Part shown: one piece after another, positions 3,901-64,000 of the stretch | How positions within the stretch are numbered: position 1 is the first letter of the stretch | Layout: each line of letters begins with the position of its first letter | NCBI GenBank assembly: GCA_024679065.1 | Contig: JAGIQG010000011.1 | Coordinates: forward strand, 42,532,001 to 42,596,000 | DNA: 64,000 nucleotides | Source: Sphyrna mokarran | Taxonomy: Eukaryota | Direction of reading: 5' to 3' | The notes under the pieces: model-generated | What the model was told of the DNA's origin: nothing | What the model saw: the letters and a program-made list of their open reading frames with translations, nothing else | Database searches by the model: none | Made by a program: the position numbers and the translations under genes

Positions 3901-4137
3901 TGTGTTTGAAAGTCAGTATCTGTGTTGGAAGTCAGTGCAGGTTTAATGCCTTTTAACCTCTTATGTGCCGGACAGCTATTTTTATGCCAGATATCCATCT
4001 TTATGGCTTTCTTCCACCTTCAGCATATTTGTGAAGCCACTACAAACCTTGCTGAAGTTTTCTGGAGCAGGTCCTCAACATGGTCAAGCAATGCTTCTAA
4101 TCCTTAACTGAATGACAGTCCTGCTTGTACATCTTGG

Positions 4138-4485
4138 TGTAGAGATGCCAGCGTTGGACTGGGGTAGTAAGAAGTCAGTAAGAATTTAGCAACACCAATT
4201 TTAAATACAATCGATTTATTTGATAGTAAATCTGCGAGCTTTCGACACTCTTGTGCCTCCGTCAGGCAAATGCAGTGTTCTGGTCTGTAATCGCACACAT
4301 ATCAACACTGACAGTCACAGACTGCTGATTAGAATGCAAATCCTTACATCTAACCTGCTATTCAAGTGTTAAAGTGGCTAACAATGTGTGTGAAGGAAAT
4401 CCTGAGCATTGGTTAGACAATTGTGTATTTTCTCCAGACAGCACAGTAAGTGAGGTTTTTTGCTAACCCAGGCAAGTTACGGTGG
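4138..4485 (-). repeat. 3' pseudo-LTR of the PLE
   Basis: Near-identical direct repeat of 7166-7497 and inverted repeat of 8411-8727. Confidence 0.9.
4230..4271 (-). ncRNA. minimal type I hammerhead ribozyme (one core change, CUGACGG)
   Basis: AUUUGC-CUGACGG-A-GGCAC-AAGA-GUGUC-GAAA-GC-UC-GCAGAU. Confidence 0.7.
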
Positions 4486-4910
4486 TTACAGATAGTGTGT
4501 CATGAAGCCAGGATCCCTATTAAGACCATCCTCATGTGTGCGGAACTTGGCTATCAGTCTCTGCTCAGTGACTGCGCTGTCGTGTGTCACGAAGGCCCCC
4601 TTGAAGAACATTTACCCGCAGGTCAGAGGCCGAATGCCCATGACTGCTGAAGTGTTCGCCCACAGGAAGGGAACTGTTTTGCCTGGTGATTGTTGAGCGA
4701 TGCTCATTCATCGCTGTCGTAGTGTCTGCATGGTCTCCCCAATGTACCATGCTTCGGGACATCCTTTCTTGCAACGTATTAGGTAGACAACGTTGGCCGA
4801 GGTGCAAGAGTATGTACCGTGTACCTGGTGAATGGTATCCTCACGTTTGATGATGTCGTCCATGTCTATGATCTGGCATGTCTTGCAGAGGTTGCTGTGG
4901 CAGGGTGTGT
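4486..4910 (-). pseudogene. Cys-rich linker and GIY-YIG endonuclease of the PLE, frameshifted
   Basis: PCHSNLCKTC linker, NVVYLIRCKKGCPEAWYIGET, ...GLNRDLGFMTHYL-stop (TAA at 4488-4486). Small indels near 4908, 4710 and 4572 relative to the other copies. Confidence 0.88.
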
Positions 4911-7163
4911 GGTATTGTGGTCACTGTTTTCCTGAAGGTTGGGTAGTTTGCTGCGAACAATGATCTGTTTGAGGTTGTGCGGTTGTCTGAAAACAAGAAG
5001 TGGGGGGGTGGGGATGGCCCTAGCGAGATGTTCATCGTCATCGATGACATGTTGAAGACTCCGGAGAAGATGTCGTAGCTTCTCCGCTCTGGGGAAGTAC
5101 TGGACAACAAAGGGTACTCTGTCCACCGTGTCCCGTGTTCGTCTTCTGAGGAGGTCAGTGCGGTTTATCGCTGTGGCACGTCGGAACTGTCGATTGATGA
5201 GTCGAGAGCCATATCCTGTTCTCACGAGGGCATTCTTCAGCGTCTGGAGGTGTCTGTCACGATCCTCCTTATCTGAGCAAATTCCGTGTATACGGAGGGC
5301 TTGTCCATAGGGAATGGCTTCTTTAACGTGTCTATGGTGGAAGCTGGAGAAGTGGAGCATTGTGAGGTTGTCTGTCGGTTTGCGGTACAGTGAGGTGCTG
5401 AGGTGACCGTCCTTGATGGAGATGCGTATATCCAAGAATGCAACTGATTCTGGAGAATAGTCCGTGGTGAGTCTCATGGTGGGATGGAACTTGTTGATAT
5501 CATCATACAGTTGTTTCAATGATTGTTCACCATGAGTCCAAAGGAAAAAGATGTCATCAATGTATCTAGTATAGAACTTTGATTGAAGATCTCGTGTGGT
5601 GAAGAAGTCTTGTTCGAACCTGTGCATGAAGATGTTGGCATACTGAGGTGCGAATTTGGTTCCCATGTCTGTTCCATGTGTCTGGATGAAAAGCTGATTG
5701 TTGAAGGTGAAGACATTGTGGTCCAAGATAAAGCGGATGAGTTGTAAAATTGCATCCGGAAACTGACAGTTGTTGGCATTGAGTACTGAGGCAGTTGCAG
5801 CAATACCATCGTCGTGGGGGATGTTGGTGTAGAGCGCCGAGACATCCATTGTGACAAGGAGTGTCCCTGGTTCAACTGCTCCGTGTGTGCTGAGTTTCTG
5901 TAGGAAGTCCGTAGTGTCAAGACAAAAGCTGGGGGTTCTTTCTACAATGGGTTTCAGGATGCCCTCGATATAGCTGAAGAGGTTCTCACACAGGGTCCCA
6001 CTGCCCGATACGATGGGACGGCCGGGTATGTTTGCTTTGTGTATCTTTGGGAGGCAGTAGAGATCTCCAATGTGGGGAGTACGTGGAATGAGAGCCCAGA
6101 GGGTGTTCTGAAGGTCCGGATCAAAGGTTTTGATCAGAGTGTTGAGTTGACAAGTGTGTTCTTTGGTCGGATCTGCTGGTAACTGTCTGTAGTGTCTCAC
6201 ATTGTTTAGTTGTCGGTACACTTCTTCACAGTAGTCCGTTTTGTTCAGTATGAAGGTGGCGCCTCCTTTGTCTGCTGGTTTGATGACAATGTTGCGGTTG
6301 GTCTTGAGAGCACGGATGGCCTTGCTTTGTGCTTGGGTGATGTTCGGGACTGTCCTGTAAGTGCGGTTGATGAATCTGGTGTTCGTGCACCTCCTGATGG
6401 CTTGGGCATACATGTCCAGTGGGGGGCAGCGGCCTTCCGGAGGAGTCCAATTGGATTCATTCCTCTTCAGTTGCTGCACTGCGGATCCCTCTGTCGGCTG
6501 TTCTGGTTCATTAGCTGTCTCATTGAGTCCACTATTGGCCTCTTGGGGTTTGTGGAAGATCTCTCGCAGCCTCATTCGCCTGATGAATTCCTCTGTGTCC
6601 GCTGCAAGACTGATGGGGTCCATTTTGGTGGTGGGACAGAAATTGAGCCCTCGGCTGAGAACTTTGATTTCCTCTGATTGAAGTGTGTAGTCCGACAAGT
6701 TAACAATGGATCTCCCTGCGGTAGTGTTGTTTTCTACTGTGGTGCCAAGAGAGGCTTGGTTGTTGCTGGTGGCGATGCTGAGTTTTTCAAGTTTCCTGTT
6801 CTTAATGTGCATGTAAATGGTGTAGTTTCTTTGTCTCATCTGCTTGGCAAAGTTTTGCAGCTGATCTGCGTCCTGAGCGCAAGTTGAGAATATGTATTCC
6901 ATTTTACTTTCCAGGGTGCAGCATTTGCTATAGAGCTGGTGTATGAGGTGATTGAGGAGTGTGAGAGAGGTGCGACGGCAAAGCCTCTCAGCATAGTCCG
7001 TGTTATAGGTTGACCTGAGTGGGTTCATGATCTGTAGTCCCTTTGGTATCCTGTCTGCTTTCTTGCATCTCTGTAGAAACTTGATGTCTGTGTCAATATG
7101 TGCAATCCTCTTGGAGATCCTCTCCACTTGGATGCAGCAGAATGCGGTGTCGATAGTAGTCAT
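4866..7163 (-). CDS. PLE polyprotein: N-terminal domain + reverse transcriptase (765 aa, ends shortly after a frameshift)
   Basis: Motifs IKPADKGG, LYCLPKIHK..PGRPIVS, LVTMDVSALYTNI, QTHGTDMGTKFAP, YTRYIDDIF, FLDI, LYRKPTD are typical PLE RT and thumb motifs. Confidence 0.93.
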   Translation of the reverse strand: MTTIDTAFCCIQVERISKRIAHIDTDIKFLQRCKKADRIPKGLQIMNPLRSTYNTDYAERLCRRTSLTLLNHLIHQLYSKCCTLESKMEYIFSTCAQDADQLQNFAKQMRQRNYTIYMHIKNRKLEKLSIATSNNQASLGTTVENNTTAGRSIVNLSDYTLQSEEIKVLSRGLNFCPTTKMDPISLAADTEEFIRRMRLREIFHKPQEANSGLNETANEPEQPTEGSAVQQLKRNESNWTPPEGRCPPLDMYAQAIRRCTNTRFINRTYRTVPNITQAQSKAIRALKTNRNIVIKPADKGGATFILNKTDYCEEVYRQLNNVRHYRQLPADPTKEHTCQLNTLIKTFDPDLQNTLWALIPRTPHIGDLYCLPKIHKANIPGRPIVSGSGTLCENLFSYIEGILKPIVERTPSFCLDTTDFLQKLSTHGAVEPGTLLVTMDVSALYTNIPHDDGIAATASVLNANNCQFPDAILQLIRFILDHNVFTFNNQLFIQTHGTDMGTKFAPQYANIFMHRFEQDFFTTRDLQSKFYTRYIDDIFFLWTHGEQSLKQLYDDINKFHPTMRLTTDYSPESVAFLDIRISIKDGHLSTSLYRKPTDNLTMLHFSSFHHRHVKEAIPYGQALRIHGICSDKEDRDRHLQTLKNALVRTGYGSRLINRQFRRATAINRTDLLRRRTRDTVDRVPFVVQYFPRAEKLRHLLRSLQHVIDDDEHLARAIPTPPLLVFRQPHNLKQIIVRSKLPNLQENSDHNTTHPATATSARHARS

Positions 7164-7497
7164 GATGTAGAGATGCCGGCGTTGGACTGGGGTAGTAAGA
7201 ACTCAGTAAGAATTTAGCAACACCAATTTTAAATCCAACCGATTTATTTGACAGTAAATCTGCGAGCTTTTGACACTCTTGTGCCTTTGTCAGGCAAATG
7301 CAGTGTTCTGGTCTGCAATCGCACACATATCAACACAGACAGTCACAGATTGCAGATTAGAATGCGAATCCTTACATCTAACCTGCTATTCAAGTGTTAA
7401 AGTGGCTAACAAATGTGTGTGAAGGGAATCCTGAGCATTGGTTACAGAATTGTGTACTTTCTCCAGACAGCACAGTAAGTGAGGTTTTTTGCTAACC
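7164..7497 (-). repeat. 5' pseudo-LTR of the PLE (5'-truncated), abutting the ORF ATG
   Basis: Direct repeat of 4138-4470. Reads ...CATCTCTACATC-ATG on the minus strand. Confidence 0.9.
7258..7299 (-). ncRNA. minimal type I hammerhead, decayed (CUGACAA, AAAA)
   Basis: AUUUGC-CUGACAA-A-GGCAC-AAGA-GUGUC-AAAA-GC-UC-GCAGAU. Two CpG-type transitions in the core. Confidence 0.65.
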
Positions 7498-8727
7498 TGA
7501 CAGACAACCGCAAACCGATAGACAACCTCACAATGCTCCACTTCTCCAGCTTCCACCATAGACACGTTAAAGAAGCCATTCCCTATGGACAAGCCCTCCG
7601 TATACACAGAATTTGCTCAGATAAGGAGGATCGTGACAGACACCTCCAGACGCTGAAGGATGCCCTCGTGAGAACAGGATATGGCGCTTGACTCATCGAT
7701 CGACAGTTCCGACGTGCCACAGCGATAAACCGCACTGACCTCCTCAAAAGACGAACACGGGACACGGTGGACAGAGTACCCTTTGTTGTCCAGTACTTCC
7801 CCAGAGCGGAGAAGCTATGACATCTTCTCTGGAGTCTTCAACATATCATTGATGACGATGAACATCTCGCTAGGGCCATCCCCACCCCTCCACTTCTTGC
7901 TTTCAGACAACCGCACAACCTCAAACAGATCATTGTTCGCAGCAAACTACCCAACCTTCAGGAGAACAGTGACCACAATACCACAGCAACCCTGCCACAG
8001 CAACCTCTGCAAGACATGCCAGATCATAGACATGGACGACATCATCAAATGTGAGGATACCATTCACCAGGTACACGGTACGTACTCTTGCAACTCGGCC
8101 AACGTTGTCTACCTAATACATTGCAAGAAAGGATGTCCCGAAGCATGGTACATTGGGGAGACCATGCAGACACTATGACAGCGGATGAATGACATCGCTC
8201 AACAATCACCAGGCAAAACAGTTCCCTTCCTGTGGGCGAACACTTCAGCAGTCATGGGCATTCGGCCTCCGACCTGCAGGTAAATGTTCTTCAAGGGGGC
8301 CTTCGTGACACACGACAGCGCAGAGTCGCTGAGCAGAGACTGATAGCCAAGTTCCGCACACATGAGGATGGTCTTAATAGGGATCTTGGCTTCATGACAC
8401 ACTATCTGTAACCCCCGTAACTTGCCTGGGTTAGCAAAACACCTCACTTACTGTGCTGTCTGGAGAAAATACACAATTCTCTAACCAATGCTCAGGATTC
8501 CCTTCACACACATTGTTAGCCACTTTAACACTTGAATAGCAGGTTAGATGTAAGGATTTGCATTCTAATCAGCAGTCTGTGACTGTCAGTGTTGATATGT
8601 GTGCGATTACAGACCAGAACACTGCATTTGCCTGACGAAGGCACAAGAGTGTCGAAAGCTCGCAGATTTACTATCAAATAAATCGGTTGGATTTAAAATT
8701 GGTGTTGCTAAATTCTTACTGAGTTCT
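7498..8727 (+). repeat. inverted 5'-truncated PLE arm (RT C-terminus, EN, pLTR)
   Basis: Reverse complement of ~4170-5385. ORF fragments RKPIDNLTMLHFSSFHH and VVYLIHCKKGCPEAWYIGET, with internal stops. Confidence 0.92.
8626..8667 (+). ncRNA. minimal type I hammerhead ribozyme, intact core
   Basis: Stem I AUUUGC/GCAGAU, core CUGACGA, stem II GGCAC/GUGUC, GAAA, vestigial stem III with palindromic AGCU, predicted cleavage after C8661. Confidence 0.85.
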
Positions 8728-9129
8728 TTGTACATCTTGGACCAGGGTAGTGCCAGAGCAGTGTCAGTTTGATGGCAGGGTATTGTCAGCGGTTGCCAGC
8801 TTGACACCAGCAAGTGCACTTGGATAAAGATTATTTCCTGGTTTGCTAGCTGTGCTTTGGGGCAACATCTTAAGGTGGTACCCAGATGTAGTATTTGACT
8901 TGATGACAGTGCAGGCAATTCAGAGCTACCAACCACTGACATACTATGGAACCTGTGACTCCAAGTTTTCTTTTCTAAGTCCCGGATTATGTGGTGGAAA
9001 AAGCTGCCACTGCCTTCAATGGCCTTAATGACGTTTTCCCAGCTGACATTGGCCTTTGTCAACATCAGAGAAAATCTCAACCCTATAATGTTCTTCTTTT
9101 CTATAATAACCCTTAAGATGGCAGCATAT

Positions 9130-17722: not shown

Positions 17723-17958
17723 ATACAGATTTGAAGATCTGTTTTGATTTTTAAGAAATTTAATTGTAATAAATTATTTATTATATCTATAGCTTGTTGT
17801 CATTACAAAGTAATTACAAAAACTGCAAAAAGTCTTCGGGGTACTGAAATTTAATTTATCTGGGTCATTAACAAACCCACAATACAGACTTTCTGGGGCT
17901 GAAACTGGCTCATGGAATAGAATGAATATCAAACAATAATTTGGTAGTACAAAATTAG

Positions 17959-18255
17959 TATTGCTGAAAAAAGATACATGTTGTCAAAGTTTTGTCTTGC
18001 ACTCATCAGGACAGATTGATGAGAACAATTGTAAAGAGAACAGCAATTCATACTGCATGAGAAGAAAGTGCTTGGCAGTGAATTGTCTACTGGTACATTA
18101 TTGGTGGCAATGTCTCTACCAGACTACTTGACAATTAATCAGCACTCTGTTGTGCAGTATAAATTGTTGTTCCCTTTATAATTAATAATTTTATGAATCT
18201 GTCTTGATGAATACAAGACGAAAAGCTTTGAGAGCATGGCTGTTTTTCAGCAATA
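17959..18255. mobile_element. palindromic non-coding element with an HHR motif in each arm
   Basis: TATTGCTGAAAAA...TTTTTCAGCAATA termini and ~110-bp imperfect arms. HHR-like motifs at ~17982-18014 (-) and ~18199-18234 (+). Confidence 0.75.
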
Positions 18256-18299
18256 TTTAAATATCCCTGTAGTGACCCTAGTTTTGGAACAAGAGGCCT

Positions 18300-18828
18300 T
18301 CATAGTATCACAGAATCCGTACAGTAAAGAAGGAGACCAATCGGCCTCTTGAGTCTGTACGAATCACAATTCCACTAGGCCCTATTCCCGTAACCCCACA
18401 CATTTACCCTGCTAATCCCCCTGACAGTAGGGTCAATTTAGCACGTGCTTGGTGTTGGTTGAAGAAGGATTATTCATATGTTTAGCACTTCTCTTGAGAT
18501 AACTAACAAATTTTTGAAAAGCAAGATGGACATCTTATCTGATGGACAGTATAGAACCATAGAATCCTACATTGCAGAAGCAAGCTATTCAGCACATCAA
18601 ACCTGACCACAATCCCATTCAGGACCTATTCCTATAACCCATACATTTACCCTACTTAATTCCCCTAACACTAAGGGCAATTCAGCATGGCCAATCCACC
18701 TAACTGCCCATCTTTGGACTATGGGAGGAAACCAAAGCACCCAGAGGAAACCCACACAGACATGGGAAGAATGTGCAAACTCCACACAGATAGTCACCCA
18801 AGTCAGGAATCAAACCACTGTGCCACCC
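18300..18828 (-). mobile_element. two HE1-like SINE copies (18300-18445 and 18553-18828)
   Basis: Reverse complement of SINE body and tail (CATAGAATCC, GGCAATTCAGCATGGCCAATCCACC, GTGCAAACTCCACACAG). Confidence 0.78.
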
Positions 18829-21796: not shown

Positions 21797-23137
21797 GTCA
21801 AGCATGGACATAATGAACTATACCCAACATCTTACAATATGATATATAGGAGGCACAGTTAGTAAGTTTGCAGATGACACAAAGATTGATGGCATAGTGG
21901 ACAGTGAGAAAGTTATCTCCAATTGTGAAGGAATCTTGATCAATTGGGCCAGTGGGCTGACGATGGCAGATGGAGTTTAATTTAGACAAATGCGAGGTGA
22001 TGCATTTTGGTAAACTGAATCAGGGCAGGACTTACTTAGTTAATGGTAGGGCATTGGGGAATTATAGAACAAAGAGATCTAGGGGTACGTATTCATAGCT
22101 CTTTGAAGGTGGAGTCACAGATGGACAGAGTGGTGAAGAAAGCATTTGGCATGCTCGGTCAGAACATTGAACACAGAGTTGGAATGTCTTGTTAAAATTA
22201 TACAAGACATTAGTACGGTCACACTTGGAATACTGTATGCGATTCTGGTCACCTTATTATAGAAAGGATATTCTTAAATTGGAAAGAGTGCAGAAAAGAT
22301 TTATTAGGATTTACCAGGATTTGATGGATTGAGTTATAAGGAGAAGTGGCGCAATAGCACAGTGGTTACCACTACTTCTTCACAACTCCAAGGATGTGAG
22401 TTTCATTCCCAGTTTGATTCCCAGCTTGTCTGTGTGCAGTCTGCACATTCTCTATACGTCTGTATGGGTTTCCTCCCACAGGCCAAAGATGTGTGGCCTG
22501 GGTGGCTATGCTAAAATTGTCCCTTAGTATCCTGAGATGCATAGATTAGAGGGATTAGCAGGTAAATGTATAGGCTATGCTAAAATTGTCCCTTAGTATC
22601 CTGAGATGCATAGATTAGAGGGATTAGCAGGTAAATGTATAGGGATGTGGGGGTAGGGCTTGACTGCAATTGTGGTCAGTGCAGACTTGATGGGCTCAAT
22701 AGCTTCCTTCTGTACTCTAGGGATTCTATGAATGGCTGGATAGACTGGGACTTTTTTCTATGGAGCATAGGAAGCTGAGGAATAATTTTATTGAGGTATA
22801 TAAAATAATGAAGAGCACAGAGCAGCTAGATAGTCAATATCTTTTCCCAAAGATAGAGGACTCTAAAACTAGAGGGCATAGGTTTAAGCTGTGAGGAGAG
22901 AGATACAAAAGTATCCAGAGGGGCAATTTTTTTCCCCACACAGAGGGTGGTGAGTATCTGAAACAAGCTGCCAGAGGTAGTAGTAGAGGTGGGTACAATT
23001 TTGTCTTTTAAAAAGCATTTAGATAGTTCATGGGTACAGTGGGTTTAGAGGGATATGGGCCAAATGCAGGCAATTGAAATGAGAGGCAAGTTGGGTCGTA
23101 GGGGCTGTTTCTATGCTGTAAACCTCTATGATTCTAT
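21797..23137 (+). mobile_element. CR1 LINE 3' fragment interrupted by a SINE
   Basis: SKFADDTK, QMEFNLDKCEVMHFG, LEYCMRFWSPYYRKDI motifs and a CTCTATGATTCTATG tail. Confidence 0.85.
22347..22731 (+). mobile_element. HE1-like SINE nested in CR1, with an internal 69-bp tandem duplication
   Basis: tRNA head. 22504-22572 equals 22573-22641. Confidence 0.82.
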
Positions 23138-30092: not shown

Positions 30093-30142
30093 TTCCCCCC
30101 CCCCCCCCTTCAAATATTATCCAGATCTACTTGGTATCCACT

Positions 30143-31745
30143 TGATTTGATTTATTATTATCACATGTATTAACATACAGTGAAAAGTATTATTTCTTGT
30201 GTGTTATACAGATAAAGTATACCATTCATAGAAGCAAGCAGAATGTAGTGTTGCAGTCATAGCTAGGATGTAGAGAAAGATCAACTTAACGTAAGGTAAG
30301 TCCATTCAGAAATCTGATTGCAGCAGGGAAGAAGCTGTTCTTGAATTGGTTGATACGCAACCTCAGACTTTTGCATCTTTTTCCTGAAGGAAGGAGGATG
30401 AAGAGAGAATGGCCGGAGTGCTTTGCCGAGGCAGTGGGATGTGTGGACAGATTCAGTGGATGGGAGACATTCACGATCTGTTGTAATTCCTTGTGGTCTT
30501 GGGCAGAGCAGGAGCCACACCAAGCTGTGATACAACCAGAAATAATACTCTCTATGGTTCATCTGTAAACATTGGTGAGAGTTGTAGCTGATGTGCCAAA
30601 TTTCCTTAGTCTTCTGAGAACGTAGAGGTGTTGGTGGGCTTTCTTAACAATAATGTCAGCATAGGGGGGACCCGGACAAGTTGTTAGTGACCTGGGCACC
30701 TAAAAACTTGAAGCTTTTGATTCTTTCTACTTCATCCTCATTGATGTAGGCAGGGACATGTTCTCCTTTACGCTTCCTGAAGTCAATGACAATCTTCTTT
30801 GTTTTGTTGATATTGAGGAGAGATTATTGTTGCTGCACCAGTTCACCAGATTGTCTGTTTCATTATTGTACTCTGTCTTGTTGTTTGAGATCTGACTACA
30901 ACGGTGGTGTCATCAGCAAACTTGAAAATCAAATTGTGAGAAATTTAGCTGCATAGTTATAGGTGTATAAGGAGTTTAGTAGAAGGCTGAGAACACAGCC
31001 TTGTGTGACACCAGTGTTGAAGATGATCGTGGAGGAGGTGTTGTTGCCTATCCTTATTGATTGTGGTGTGTGAGTTGGTAAGTTCAGGATCCAGTTGCAG
31101 AAGGAGGTGTCAAGATCCAAGCCACGGAGTTTGGAGATGAATTTCGGGGGAATAATAGTGTTGAAGGCTGAGTTGTAGTCAACAAATAGGTGTCTGACAT
31201 AGGTCTCCTTGTTATCTAGGTGTTCCAGAGTTGAGTGCAGGACCGGGGAAGTGGCATCAGCTGTGGACCTGTTGCAGCAGTAGGCAAACTGGATCCAGGT
31301 AGTTTGGGAGGCTGGAATTGATTTCTGTCGTGACTAACCTTTTGAAGCACTTCATAATGATGGATGTCAGAGTCATTGGCCAATAGTCATTAAGGCATGC
31401 TGTTTGTTTTTGCTTAAGTACTGGGATGATGGTCATCTTTTTGAAGCAGTTGGGAGCTCAGATTATTGTAAAGAGAGATTGAAGATGTCTGTGAATATCT
31501 CCGCCAGCTGATCTGTGCAGGAACTGAGTGCATGCCCAGGTACCCCATTTGGGCCAGTTACTTCCCATTGGTTGACCTTCAAGAAAGGTGCTCTGATATC
31601 TGCAATGGTGATCCCAGGTTCATTCAGGGCTTCAGAGTGGAGGGCATGCTCTCAATGACCTCTTGTTCAAAATGGATGTAGAATGCATTGAGTTCATCAG
31701 GGAGGGAATGCTTTGGAGCCAGTGATTTTTATATGCCTTCATCTT
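30143..31745 (-). mobile_element. Rex1/Babar LINE fragment
   Basis: FCNWILN...[47 protein letters not shown], and a (TTTGA)n tail. Confidence 0.85.
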
Positions 31746-41829: not shown

Positions 41830-44260
41830 GAAGCAGTCCTTAACTGCATGCAGCAAGAACTGGACAATATTCAGGCTTGGGCTTTAAGTGGCAAGTAACA
41901 TTGCACCACACAAGTGCCAGGCAATGTCTATTTTCAAGATGATCAATCTAAGCATCTTCCATTTATGTCGCTGAATCCTCCACTGTCAACGTTCTGAGGG
42001 TTACCATTGAGCAAAAAATGAACTGGAATAGTTATAAAAATACAATGGCTACAACTAGAAATTAAGGACTAGAAATTCCATGGTGAGTAACGTCCTGATT
42101 CCCCAAAGTCTACCGTCTACAAGGCCCAAGTCAGAAATATAATGTATGATTTTCCCCTTGTATGGATGAGTGCAGACTTAATGCTCAATGCATTCTATAC
42201 CTGTTTTGAGTAAGAGGTCAGTGAGAGCATGCCCTCCACCCTGGAAGCCTTGGATGAACTTACATCTGAGGTAACTCTTTAAGATGTCAGACATGCTTTC
42301 TTAAAGTCAACCGCAAAAAGTGACTGGCCAAGATGTGGAACCCAAATGAGCACTCAGATTCTGTGTGAGTCAGCTGGTGGTATTCGCAGACATCTTCAAC
42401 TTCTCTTTTCAACGATCTGAAGAAAACAACATTTATCCCGGTACCGAAGAAAGGCCAAACAGTGTGCCTTAATGACTCATCCGGTCGCTCTGACATCCAT
42501 CATTATGAAGTGTCTCAAAAAATTAGTCATGGCATGAATCAATTCCAGCCTCCTGGACTGCCTGGATCCACTACAGTTTGCTACAGCTGCAACCGGTCTA
42601 CAGCAAATGGCATTTACCTGGCCCTGCATTCAATCCTGGAATACCTAGAAAACAGAGGCACACTGTGTCCATACGGATACAATAGTCAGAGTCCTATTTA
42701 TGAACTTCAGCTCAGCCTTCAACACCAATTATTCTGAGGAAACTCATCTCCAAATTCCATGGTCTGAGCCTTGGCTCCTCCTCCTACAACTGGACACTGA
42801 ACTGCATAACTCACATAACTTACAATCAGTAAGGATAGGCAACAATACCTCCTCCATGATCATCATCAACACTGATGCCCCATAAGGCTATGTCCTCAGC
42901 CCCCTACTATACTTGTACATCTATTACTGTGTGGGCAAATTCCCCTTCAACTCGATTTTCAAGTTTGCTGACGACACCACCATAGCGGGTTGGATTCAAA
43001 CAATGACAAGACAGAGTGCAGGAATGAGTTAGAGAATCTGATGTACTGGTGCAGCAACTATAATCCTCAATGTCAACAGAACAATGGCAATTGTCATCGA
43101 CTTTGGAAAAGGTAAAGGGGAACATGCCCCTGTCTACATCAATGGGGATGAAGTGAAAAGGGTCAAGAGCTTCAAGTTTTTAGTATCCAGATCACCAACA
43201 ACCTGTCCTGGTCCCTCCATGCTGACACTAGTTAAGAAAGCCTATCAACACTTCTATTTTCTCAGAAGATTAAGGAAACTTGGCATGTCAGTTACGATTC
43301 ACACCCAATGTTTACAGATGCACCATAGAAAGCATTCTTTCTGACTTTATCAGAGCTTGGTATATCTTCTGCTCTACCCAAGACAACAAAAAACTATAGA
43401 AGGTCATAAATGTAGCTTGGTCTATCGTGCAAACAGCCTCTTATTCACTGATTCTATCTACGCTTGCTGCTGCCTCAACAGAGCAGCCAGCATAATTAAG
43501 GACCCTAAGCACTCCAGACATTCTCTATTCTACCTTCTTCCATCGGGAAAAAAGATACAAAAGTCTGAGGTTACCTGCCAATCAACTCAAGAACAACTTC
43601 TTCCCTGTTGCTGTAGGACTTTTGAATGGATTTGCTTTGCGTTAAGTTGACCTTTTTTTACACCCTAGCTGTGACTGTAACACTACATTTCTGCACTCTC
43701 TCGGTTCCTTCTCCATGAATAGCATGCTCTGTATAGCACACAAAAAACAATACTTTTCACTGTATGCTAATACATGTGACAATAAATCAAATCAACAACA
43801 TTGAAAATGCTTGACACTATCCATGACGAAGTAGCTTCGGGTGATACATCATCCACAAATATTCACTCCCTCCCAGTGGTATATACCATCTACAACATGC
43901 ACTTCAGTAACTCACCAAAAGTCCTTCAACAGTACCTTCCAAATCCATAACTTCTACTATCTTGAATAGAAGTTTTCAAGATCTATGAATCTTGAAATTC
44001 ATAGATTTTCAATCTATGAATAGCATCATCTGTAAGTTACCCTCCAAACCACACATCCACCTCAATTGGAACTATATCATCTTTCCTCCACTATCACTGG
44101 ATTAAAATTCTATATCTCTCTTCTTAACAGCACTGAATGTTCCTACAACACACAGACTTAATGGTTCAAGAAGGCAGCTCACTACAACCTTCTTGGGGCC
44201 AATGAGGGATGGACAGTAAATGCTGACTTAGCCAGCAACATCCATATCTCGTGAATGAAT
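41830..44260 (+). mobile_element. CR1/L2-superclade LINE split by a Rex1 insertion
   Basis: The LINE sequence stops at ~42180 and resumes at ~43796. Confidence 0.7.
42190..43795 (+). mobile_element. Rex1/Babar LINE fragment
   Basis: [42 protein letters not shown], and an (AATCA)n tail. Same family as 30143-31745. Confidence 0.85.
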
Positions 44261-49905: not shown

Positions 49906-49929
49906 TGAACCACTACCACCATGCCACAA

Positions 49930-50690
49930 TGTGGAGATGCTGGTGTTGGTTTGGGGTAAACACAATAAACATCAGGTTAAAGTCCAACAAATTTTATTTG
50001 ATAGTAAACCCATAAGCTTTTGGAGTTTGCCCTTTGTCAGGTGAGTGAAGAGTTCTGGTCTCAAATGGAGCATTTAAAGGCACACACAGTTTACAGAATA
50101 CTGATTAGAATGTGAACCTTTACAGCTAATCAATTCTTAAAGATGCGGACAATGTGAGTGGAGATAGTATTAAGCATAGGTTAAAGAAATGTGTATTGTC
50201 CCCAGACAGGACAGTAAGTGAGATGTTGCAAGCCCAGGCAAGTCATGGGGGTTACAAGTAGTGTGACATAAACCCAAAATCCTGGTTGAGGCTGTCCTCA
50301 TGTGTGCGCAACTTGGCTATTAGTTTCTGCTCAGTGATTCTGTGCTATTGTATGTCATGAAGGCTGCCTTGGAGAACATTTACCCAAAGATTAGAGCCAA
50401 ATGCTGGTAACCACTGAAATGCTCACCAATAGGAAAGGAACAGTCTTGCCTGGTGAGTCTAGCCAAGGGAGACTATACATATCTCTTTAACCTATGTCCA
50501 CATCTTTTAAGAATTGGTTAAGACAATTGATTAAAAGAACTGTAAAGACTCACATTCTAATCAGTATTCTGTAAACTGTGTGTGCCTTTATATGGTCTGT
50601 TTGAGACCAGAACTCTCCACTCACCTGACAAAGGGGCAAACCCTGAAAGCTTGAAGGTTTATTATCAAAAACTTCTTTGATTTTAACCAT
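49930..50690. mobile_element. inverted pair of PLE 3' ends (EN C-terminus + pLTRs), HHR remnants in both arms
   Basis: 49930-50457 (-) and ~50460-50690 (+) are reverse complements. CTGACAAAGGG(G)C...(G/A)AAAGCTT in each arm. Confidence 0.8.
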
Positions 50691-51704
50691 CATGCCATTC
50701 CAGATCACCACCACCTCAAGCACAAATAAAGATTGGCAATAAATGCTGGCTTAGCATGCAATACCTGCATCTCATAGATTAAATTTCAAAAATTGTTTCT
50801 GATCACTGTCACTATGTATCACCAACTCTGGACTCGTGTCACGTCCTTCTAATGTGCTAATAGCTCAATTGACAGAGTGTGGGCTCATCAGATGTCACGC
50901 AGCCATTTCTTCCGCTTCCTGATTGAGGGGTGAGTGACTGGCATTGGGAGCTGTGTGAGAGACAAAAGGAGTTAATGAGATCCAGCTTGTTGCATTGTGG
51001 AAGCACACTCTGATGCAAGCCGTTGCCCTTTAACCATAACTGCACTGCTCTTATTGTGCCAACTCCACCTCACACTCCCTCTCATGCCAATGTCCCATTG
51101 TGCTCATTGAACTAACTGCATTGCCTCTAACAGTACAAAATTCCTCCACAACTACCATTAGTACCTTTTTACAGATGATTCACCATTTCATGCCAAGTAG
51201 GCACCCTGGCTATCTGCATTTGTACTGACATGAGAAATGGAAAAAAAATGCGTATAAGACATCAGTTTTGAATGGTCTCTCACACATTTGTGTGCTCACA
51301 TTCATGTTCTCTATTTCATCGATGACTAATTTGAGGGGAGGGGATGACAAAATATATCTAGAAAAATGCAGGGTAGCCTTGTGTTTGTTCCTGTGATGGA
51401 TGGCATGCAATGCTGCCAACCACTATCCTATTGTCTTACATCCTGAGCCACTCTCTTATAGAATGAGGTTGTGCAGCTGTGAGGGTCCAGGTCAAAGAGT
51501 ATCCTGAGAGATGGTCAGAACACAGGTAAGCAGAAGGTAAAGACCATGAGGTGAGAAAGAGTAGAATGGTCCCTGCAAGAAGGATGTTTACCTTGTCCAG
51601 GGTGTCCAGAATAAAGGATGGCAGTTTCACATTAAGAGTAAGACCACCTAGGACTCAGCCTTATTGGAGCCTGTGCAATTGGAAGGTGTGGATTGATTCC
51701 TACT

Positions 51705-53732
51705 CATAGTAAGAAGTCTCACAACACCAGGTTGAAGTCCAACAGATTTATTTGGTAGCAAAAGCCACTAGCTTTCAGAGCGCTGCCCCTTCGTCAGTAA
51801 GTGTTCACAAACAGGGCACATAAAGACACAAACTCAATTTACAAAATAATGGTTGGAATGCGAGTCCTTGCAGGTAATCAAGTCTTAAAGTTTTAGACAA
51901 TGTGAGTAGAGAGAGCATTAAGTACAGGTTAAAGCAATAGAATCATAAAAATCAGTGAAACTCTACAGAGCAGAAAGAGGCCATCTGGCCCATCAAGTCT
52001 GCACCGAACACAATCCCACCCAGGCCCTATCCCCGTATTCCAACACATTTACCCACTAATTCCTCTAATTTCCGCATCTCAGGACACAAAGGGACAATTT
52101 TAGCATGGCCAGTCAACCTAATCCACACATCTCTGGACTGTGGGAGGAAACTGGAGCACCCAGAGGAGAATGTGCAGACTTCAGACAGTGACCCAAATCG
52201 GGAATTGAACCCAGGTCTGTGGAGTGGTGAAGCAGCAGTGCTAATCACTGTGTGTTTGCCTCCAGACCGGACAGTTAGTGAGATTTTACAAGCCCAGGCA
52301 AGTCATGGGGGTTACACATAGTGTGACAGGAACCCAAGATTCCGGTTGAAGCCGTCCTCGTGTGCGGAACCTGGCTATCAGTGTCTGCTCTGTGACTGCA
52401 TTATCGTGTGTCGTAAAGGCCACCTCGGATAATGCTTACCCGAAGATCAGAGGCCGAATGCCCGTGACTGCTGAAATGTTCCCCGACAGGAAGAGAACAG
52501 TCTTGCCTGGTCATTATTGACTGGTGTTCATTCATCCATTGTCACAGTGCCTGCATGGTCTCCCCAATATACCAAGCCTTGAGACATCCTTTCCTGCAGC
52601 GTATCAGGTAGACAACGTTGGCCGAATTGCAAGAATATGTACCGTGTACCTGGTGATAGTGTTCTCACGTGAGATCATGGCATTCATGTCGATGATCCAG
52701 CACGTCTCTCGGTAGTTTGTTGCATACAGTTACTTCCCTGGAATGGAGAAGCTATAACATCTCCGGAGTCTTCAGTGTGTCATTGATGAAGATGAACATC
52801 TTGCCAAGGCCATCTCCATATCCCCACTTCTTGCCTTCAAACAACTGCATAACCTCAAACAGACCACTGTCTGCAGCAAGCTACCCAGCCTTCAGGAGAA
52901 TAGTGTCCACGGCATCACAACCCTGCCACAGCAATCTCTGTAAAATGTGTGGGATCATCGACAAGGATGCCATCATCGTTGAGAACACCATCCACCAGGA
53001 TGCCATCATCGTTGAGAACACCGTCCACCATCACGTGAGAACACCGTCCACCAGGTACACGGTACATACTTTTACACCTCGGCCAATGTTGTCTACCTGA
53101 TATGCTGCGGGAAAGGATGTCCTGAGGCATAGTACACTGGGGAGACCATGCAGATGCTCCGACAACGGATGAATGAACACTTTCGACAATCACCAGGCAA
53201 GAATGTTCTCTTCCTGTTGGGGAACACTTCAGCGGTCATGGGCATTTGGCCTCTGATCTTCGGATAAGCTTCATGACACACAGCCTTCACAACACCCAGC
53301 AGTGCAGAGTCACTGAGCAGAGAGTGATAGACAAGTTCCGCACACATGAAGACAGTCTCAACCAGGATCTTCGGTTCATGTCACACCTACCTGTAACCTT
53401 CACGACTTGCCTGGGCTTGCAAAATCTCACTAACTGTTCTGTCTGGAGACAACACGCATATCTTTAAGTTGTGCTAAACACTCTCGCCACTCACATTGTC
53501 TGTACCTTTGAGATTTGATTACCTGTAAAGACTTGCATTCCAACCGTTATTTTGTAAATTAAGTTTGTTTTTGTATGCCCTGTTTGTGAACAGAGCTCCT
53601 ACTTATCCGATGAAGGCGCAGCAGTCCGAAAGCTGTGGTGTTTGCTACCAAATAAACCTGTTGGGCTTTAACCTTGTGTTGTGAGACTTCATACTGTGTT
53701 TACTCCAGTCCAACACTGACATCTCCACATCC
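51705..53732. mobile_element. inverted pair of PLE 3' fragments (GIY-YIG + pLTR) with a nested SINE
   Basis: Minus arm 51705-~52710, plus arm ~52715-53732. QPCHSNLCKMC and EQRVIDKFRTHEDSLNQDLRFMSH. HHR motifs at ~51765-51800 (-) and ~53603-53638 (+). Confidence 0.85.
51938..52251 (-). mobile_element. HE1-like SINE inserted in the PLE pLTR
   Basis: Reverse-complement SINE. The PLE sequence resumes at ~52252. Confidence 0.8.
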
Positions 53733-63350: not shown

Positions 63351-64000
63351 GTAGTAAGAACTCAGTAAGAATTTAGCAACACCAATTTATAATCCAACCG
63401 ATTTATTTGATAGTAAAAAAGCGAGCTTTTGACTCCTGTGTCTTCTTCAGGCAAATGTAGTGTTCTGGTCTGCAATAGCACACATCAGCACAGACAGTCA
63501 GAGATTGCTGATTAGAATGCGAATCCTTACATCTAACCTGCTATTCAAGTGTTAAAGTGGCTAACAATGTGTGTGAAGGGAATCCTGAGCATTGGTTAGA
63601 GAATTGTGTATTTTCTCCAGACAGCACAGTAAGTGAGGTTTTTTGCTAACCCAGGCAAGTTACGGGGGTTACAGATAGTGTGTCATGAAGCCAAGATCCC
63701 TGTTAAGACCGTCCTCATGTGTGCGGAGCTTGGCTATCAGTCTCTGTTCAGCGACTCTGCGCTGTCGTGTATCACGAAAGCCCCCTTGAAGAACATTTAC
63801 CCGCAGGTCGGAGGCCGAATGCCCATGACTGCTGAAGTGTTCGCCCACAGGAAGGGAACTGTTTTGCCTGGTGATTGTTGAGCGATGCTCATTCATCCGC
63901 TGTCGTAGTGTCTGCATGGTCTCCCCAATATACCATGCTTCGGGACATCCTTTCTTGCAACGTATTAGGTAGACAACGTTGGCCGAGTTGCAAGAGTATG
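63351..64000 (-). mobile_element. PLE of the same family as 4138-8727 (pLTR + GIY-YIG), running off the window end
   Basis: High identity to 4165-4812. Open EN frame MQTLRQRMNEHRS...FMTHYL. Decayed HHR at 63421-63456. Confidence 0.92.

Follow-up and report, generated by a model that had tools for sequence, protein, structure and literature searches.

What is the palindrome at positions 17959-18255 of the window, the 64,000-nucleotide stretch of Sphyrna mokarran DNA that we analysed? MITEs and fold-back DNA transposons are short, non-coding and palindromic in appearance, and this locus looks much like them. A sequence-only reading had proposed two options: a minimal inverted insertion of a Penelope-like element (PLE), or a non-autonomous fold-back element that presents a hammerhead ribozyme whichever strand is transcribed. 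We examined the arms, the family to which they belong, the hammerhead motifs, and the junctions and outer ends of related loci.

An inverted pair with unequal arms

The long imperfect inverted arms that had been described are real. Local alignment of the left half to the reverse-complemented right half scored 90, whereas 1000 shuffles reached 28 at most, and the arms are 77% identical over 104 columns. One strand folds as a long RNA hairpin (z = -11.4), and 0/100 shuffles were equally stable. An exact-seed repeat finder did not pick up the arms because they contain indels.

The description of a palindromic unit of about 300 bp stood only in part, since the palindrome is real but lopsided. On the numbering of the family majority sequence, the left, shorter arm (17959-18072, minus strand) covers positions -119 to 0, and the right, longer arm (18070-18257, plus strand) covers positions -196 to about +2. 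The arms meet head-to-head at -119 and -196, sharing a 3-nt overlap, GCT, at 18070-18072. There is no spacer: the unpaired centre at 18073-18140 (plus strand) is additional right-arm sequence from the upstream part of the family repeat (-196 to -120), found in the right arm only. The left arm in turn extends ~20-28 nt further outward, clearly to 17940 and perhaps to 17931. The palindrome had also been called non-coding. This holds insofar as no stop-free frame of at least 80 aa overlaps it, but both arms end in the initial codons of an element ORF.

Could the host have retained the palindrome as a structured RNA or regulatory hairpin? The strong predicted hairpin would suit such a role. However, the arms are 23% apart and ~16-24% from the family majority (82-84% identity for the left arm and 76-80% for the right), like other family copies, whose median identity to the majority is 78%. 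With no sign of constraint, we consider retention by the host extremely improbable.

A decayed Penelope-like family behind the arms

Searching the 2.77 Gb genome with the palindrome gave 2223 first-look candidates, 40 of which were scored. The majority of the fetched loci hold a single arm, and these single arms reach upstream to varied lengths, producing a staircase of 5' truncations. Followed upstream, the single arms pass through motifs that we take to be CCAAT-like and TATA-like boxes and lead into a decayed ORF. Within the palindrome, the TATA-like box is at 18158-18164 in the right arm (plus strand) and, in decayed form, at 18046-18052 in the left arm (minus strand).

Direct Pfam scans of decayed copies returned no reverse transcriptase (RT) or GIY-YIG domain (0/12 relevant; 0/24), so the domain assignment rests on relatives. 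A profile built from 24 natural upstream-ORF fragments matched 2662 proteins at E<=0.001. RVT_1 was present in 8/10 checked relatives, six of which reached or exceeded the cut-off set by Pfam; 6/10 relatives matched GIY-YIG (PF01541) at the C-terminus, with E values of 6e-4 to 5e-3, all below the curated cut-off. Family copies show the motif VVYEF-C-C---YVG and two later His residues, which presumably represent GIY-YIG/CCHH. A word-based protein search with one decayed fragment gave 21 candidates, none significant, and a cluster look-up for the 10 relatives returned no names. One full-length relative of 836 aa with RVT_1 above cut-off, P0005, matches 39/100 loci across residues 93 to 834. Its RT core is matched in L081, L090, L093, L068 and others, and L068 continues to the ribozyme end.

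An ATG opens the sequence 3' of the ribozyme in 50/87 arms; in the palindrome it lies at 17977-17979 in the left arm (minus strand) and at 18236-18238 in the right arm (plus strand). The peptide encoded after the ribozyme resembles the N-terminus of P0005, with 0/5000 shuffles equally good; in another version of this comparison, which included a stop letter, the observed score of 42 was below the shuffle maximum of 46 (2000 shuffles). Because single arms lead into the ORF and the arm ends read as the ORF start, each arm is, judged from its sequence, a pseudo-LTR (pLTR) made up of promoter, hammerhead and first ORF codons. The pseudo-LTR of Pen2a_Av has the same build (PMC3846280).

Several features by which PLEs are recognized were found in this family. 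The linked ORF encodes a PLE-type reverse transcriptase, as the P0005 matches indicate; the pseudo-LTR holds a TATA box, a hammerhead and the first ORF codons; copies show variable 5' truncation, with an inverted truncated copy at the 5' end; and a short tail (30-40 bp in PLEs, about 28 nt here) occurs at one end only. The option of a minimal inverted PLE insertion is supported; the arms are the family pseudo-LTR, and longer copies run upstream into an ORF of RT plus putative GIY-YIG type. In A1 and in P0005 we saw no Cys-rich stretch linking the RT to the endonuclease, and the lack of a Zn-finger-like linker at this place is a criterion for the Penelope/Poseidon clade (PMC8557442).

The PLE family is abundant, fossil and fully decayed. 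The best protein matches are riddled with stops. A search for an autonomous partner found no intact member among 150/944 and 150/5083 candidates scored: open frames with a match were at most 244 and 296 aa among the matches listed, lengths that are lower bounds. At L056:905-1261, P0005 residues 184-307, from the N-terminal part of the ORF, lie immediately upstream of the endonuclease region, suggesting that this copy has an internal deletion. In the literature searched, we found no account of this family, of a unit-mobile hammerhead palindrome, or of tail position relative to arm length; Repbase, Dfam or a supplement of PMC4209133 may hold a description of the family or of its ribozyme.

The window also holds PLE sequence of a second kind. 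A 778-aa RT frame at 4866-7202 was considered as the partner and rejected, having no nucleotide match to the element and only 25% identity to P0005. This stop-free frame (minus strand; RVT_1 E 1e-10) lies in a younger insertion of another family at 4132-8728. The inverted arms of that insertion, 4169-5386 and 7507-8728, are 97% identical; a Cys-rich linker precedes a GIY-YIG-like motif in the inverted arm at 7729-8178, a presumably Neptune-like arrangement, and a hammerhead core with a longer stem II is found at 8632. More diverged copies of the second family, some inverted, occupy 49929-53730 and 63351-64000, and a hammerhead-like core lies at 51797 on the minus strand.

Hammerhead remnants and the ancestral ribozyme

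A hammerhead had been reported in each arm, but neither is intact, and Rfam, searched with the window at E<=1, recovered none, returning only two chance lncRNA matches. The left remnant (17981-18014, minus strand) retains CUGAUGA and stem II; a 2-nt deletion removed G12 and the stem III palindrome, disrupting GAAA. The right remnant (18199-18234, plus strand) retains GAAA and the stem III palindrome and has two core substitutions, C3->U and G10.1->A, together with a single mismatch in stem I. When we required an intact core in one strand (CUGANGA, G10.1-C11.1, GAAA and UH), each arm failed at least one feature. Both hammerheads are predicted to be dead from these core mutations.

The combined motif read earlier from the two arms, with its very short stem II, agrees with the family. 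Counted column by column over 87 arms, the majority is CUGUC-CUGAUGA-GUGCAAGAC-GAAA-AGCU-U(C)-GACAG. A consensus lacking CUGAUGA or GAAA, which the sequence-only reading had named as a refuting result, was not observed, as both are present. At two ribozyme positions, the 87 arms show CpG decay (TG 41, CA 22 and CG 2 at one; TG 49, CA 26 and CG 5 at the other), and therefore the ancestor would have had C11.1-G12 and C17. All four core features are kept together in 0/87 sampled arms. In the family ancestor, the hammerhead was probably of the minimal type I kind, and its stem II was 2 bp long.

This putative ancestor resembles the minimal type I hammerheads of metazoan PLEs in its CUGAUGA/GAAA core, G10.1-C11.1 pair, short palindromic helix III and location in the pLTR (PMC4209133). 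It differs from their consensus, which has a helix II of about 6 bp and an extra base, in having a 2-bp helix II, a 5-nt loop and no extra base before 10.1. Stems II as short as 2 bp are reported to be frequent in natural hammerheads (PMC3088659). Minimal PLE hammerheads with a palindromic helix III cleave weakly, as dimers, and motif pairs 100-700 bp apart on opposite strands have already been mentioned (PMC4209133). The hammerheads studied here would be passengers of the pseudo-LTR, and in the living element minimal type I ribozymes of this kind may have cleaved weakly, as dimers.

The idea that the palindrome offers a ribozyme on whichever strand is transcribed fared poorly. Besides the mutations in both cores, folding of read-through RNA from either strand gave a predicted stem I pairing probability of 0.0, with all but one base of the cores paired to the opposite arm at 0.96-1.0. 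The hairpin in read-through RNA is thus predicted to bury both hammerhead cores. Non-LTR retrozymes are also non-coding, derived from pLTRs and equipped with a type I hammerhead, but they consist of head-to-tail tandem units with intact ribozymes (10.64898/2026.07.22.740005). The palindrome, in contrast, lacks a repeated unit and consists of a single head-to-head pair whose ribozymes are broken, and no direct-repeat family covers the element.

Junctions, tails and the origin of the inversion

A non-autonomous fold-back element, whether MITE-like or retrozyme-like, would have a fixed centre and would move as a unit. The very stable hairpin is in keeping with this, as are other palindromes of 266-304 bp in the genome (L003, L006, L007, L030 and L034). 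However, these are alike in size because the query was 297 nt, and their junctions differ (-129/-153, -163/-173, -223/-58, -136/-124). An 86-base query spanning the junction gave 36 candidates, all of which were scored. The 35 matches other than the palindrome itself all stop at the junction, 33 ending at or before query base 43 and two at bases 46 and 49.

We then considered the family as a whole. With 5 duplicate loci removed, 95 family loci were mapped onto the family majority sequence, and 39/95 contain a head-to-head inversion. Among direct junctions (gap <=40 nt), 24/24 differ, with no breakpoint pair common within 10 nt; with divergence at ~22%, breakpoints can be placed to roughly 10 nt, and later deletion may have altered arm lengths. 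Inverted units range up to 1858 bp among the pairs examined. Inversions were also common in loci picked by ORF-side queries (17/48), indicating that the family itself is prone to inversion and that the pattern was not created by querying with a palindrome.

The sequence-only reading had named differing inversion points as the result that would count against unit mobility, and this is what we observed. Many copies of uniform length with one common centre were not found, and the two sides do not stop at one and the same base, as terminal inverted repeats would, given the tail on one arm only. Unlike MITEs and fold-back DNA transposons, the family has no fixed length or centre, its outer ends are unequal, its 5' truncations form a staircase, and other copies run directly into an RT-endonuclease ORF. 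The warning that such a locus could be misannotated as a MITE is fair, although its unequal ends already set it apart from terminal inverted repeats. The unit-mobile fold-back reading is largely refuted, and we find it scarcely credible for this locus; since the palindrome search scored 40/2223 candidates, a rare fixed-junction subfamily could be missed.

The outer ends carry further information. Across the family they fall at two positions about 28 nt apart, the longer version carrying a tail. In the palindrome the tail lies on the left, shorter arm only (17931-17958, minus strand, with a clear match at 17940-17958), where it extends the first codons of the ORF and scores 31, compared with a null 99th percentile of 17; the right arm has none (score 9). 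Exactly one tail was found in 11/13 pairs with both ribozyme ends, and none was two-tailed (p = 0.009). In a broader count that began with 37 simple pairs, 16 were dropped for missing outer ends; of the 21 complete pairs left, 17 are one-tailed, 3 are tailless and 1 is two-tailed (L089). A tail on one end only has been published for PLE insertions (PMC8557442).

Poseidon of Anolis carolinensis (PAc) offers a close comparison (PMC11167929). It too has an RT followed by a C-terminal GIY-YIG domain, a hammerhead that adjoins the ORF start, and two copy ends, both inside the ORF, that bound the tail. In PAc the tail lies between two reverse-transcription start sites, and both target strands are cut and extended. 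The two elements differ in that the PAc ATG is at stem II and its start sites are >100 nt into the ORF, whereas the shark family has its ATG after stem I, and its copies have their ends about 20 and about 48 nt inside the ORF.

At the expected ends, the palindrome is bordered by an 8-mer with one mismatch, a weak candidate for a target-site duplication (TSD). Its left copy (17923-17930, plus strand) lies at the point expected for the end of the tail, 28 nt beyond the common end of the left arm, and its right copy (18258-18265, plus strand) is identical to it at 7/8 positions. Matches of at least 7/8 arose in 6.6% of random trials; a 7/8 flanking match was seen in 3/12 pairs, compared with that null of 6.6%, and an unrestricted TSD search gave no excess over null. 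The flanking 8-mer is at most suggestive of a target-site duplication.

Together, these features place the palindrome among known insertions. Like the PLE insertion unit described for Pen2a_Av (PMC3846280) and in PMC8557442 (Fig. 2), it has head-to-head inverted, unequally truncated pLTRs with a TATA box and first ORF codons, a ~30-bp tail on one arm that adds codons, and possibly an 8-bp TSD. It differs in that no ORF body lies between the arms, both of which stop within 200 nt of the end, that the shark family is fully decayed, and that the junction has no palindrome beyond the 3-nt overlap. The palindrome is a further, ordinary copy of the published layout of inverted pLTR, one tail and short TSD.

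Both arms map to the family pseudo-LTR, the junction is unique, one arm is tailed, and both hammerheads are mutated. We are highly confident that two 5'-truncated 3' ends of a decayed PLE family make up the palindrome, as a unique head-to-head pair that is likely from one old insertion and is now likely inert. Alternatively, two independent insertions of the family could have abutted, or one copy could have undergone a later local inversion or duplication. The family is abundant, with its 2223 candidates, and, according to PMC6765202, PLEs insert next to older copies. However, the strand switches in the 95 loci are 40 head-to-head and 2 tail-to-tail (40/42 head-to-head), there is one tail per pair, the arms meet without a gap, and the candidate TSD flanks the pair as a whole, leaving either event very unlikely. 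The only two tail-to-tail switches are held by L072:1489-2622 and L080:172-2840, each with more than one strand switch.

The integration step of PLEs has been called undefined (PMC8557442) and not yet validated (PMC11167929). For the pair studied here, we propose that the GIY-YIG endonuclease of the element would have cut both target strands, and that each free 3' end would have primed reverse transcription on the element RNA. The outer start site would give the tailed arm and the inner site the tailless arm. Both cDNAs would have stopped early, after about 145 and 190 nt, and been joined at the 3-nt overlap, with repair leaving a short duplication.

The same PLE origin could instead involve self-priming, in which either the first cDNA or, as proposed in PMC3846280, an antisense RNA template folds back. 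The 3-nt overlap at the junction would fit, junction palindromes have been read as self-priming on an antisense template (PMC3846280), and self-priming on antisense RNA could place the tail on the shorter arm. Fold-back of the cDNA, however, would copy the shorter arm from the longer, and a short copy cannot carry sequence that the long arm lacks. Of the 17 one-tail pairs, 11 carry the tail on the shorter arm, like the palindrome, and 6 carry it on the longer. Tails on both kinds of arm are most simply explained by independent priming, although these are old copies that may have lost sequence. The 11/17 count therefore favours two separate priming events over DNA fold-back, and we regard inversion by self-priming as unlikely.

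A stricter version of the two-primer scheme is tentative, and we rate it a little short of even. Here PLE integration would always be two-ended: a dimeric RT-endonuclease would prime each cut strand separately, with the outer site invariably serving one strand and the inner site the second, before joining the truncated cDNAs. The one-tail rule (17/21) and the short-arm tails (11/17) would be its genomic record, cDNA fold-back would be ruled out as a source of palindromes, and the ancestral ribozyme, with its 2-bp stem II, would be among the smallest PLE hammerheads.

The locus itself carries little weight; dead stumps like it number at least in the many hundreds. For annotation, it indicates that a short palindrome whose hammerhead remnants face outward is PLE debris and not a DNA-transposon MITE or a viroid-like unit. 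The family's inverted pairs, in turn, provide a countable test of how PLEs integrate.

Other repeats surround the palindrome in the window. Just downstream, at 18307-18443 and 18553-18817, are two short interspersed repeats with several copies in the window, presumably SINEs. Two 1.6-kb repeats at 30142-31692 and 42184-43795, 73% identical and in opposite orientation, are probably LINE fragments, and a perfect 71-bp tandem duplication lies within a repeat at 22504-22643.
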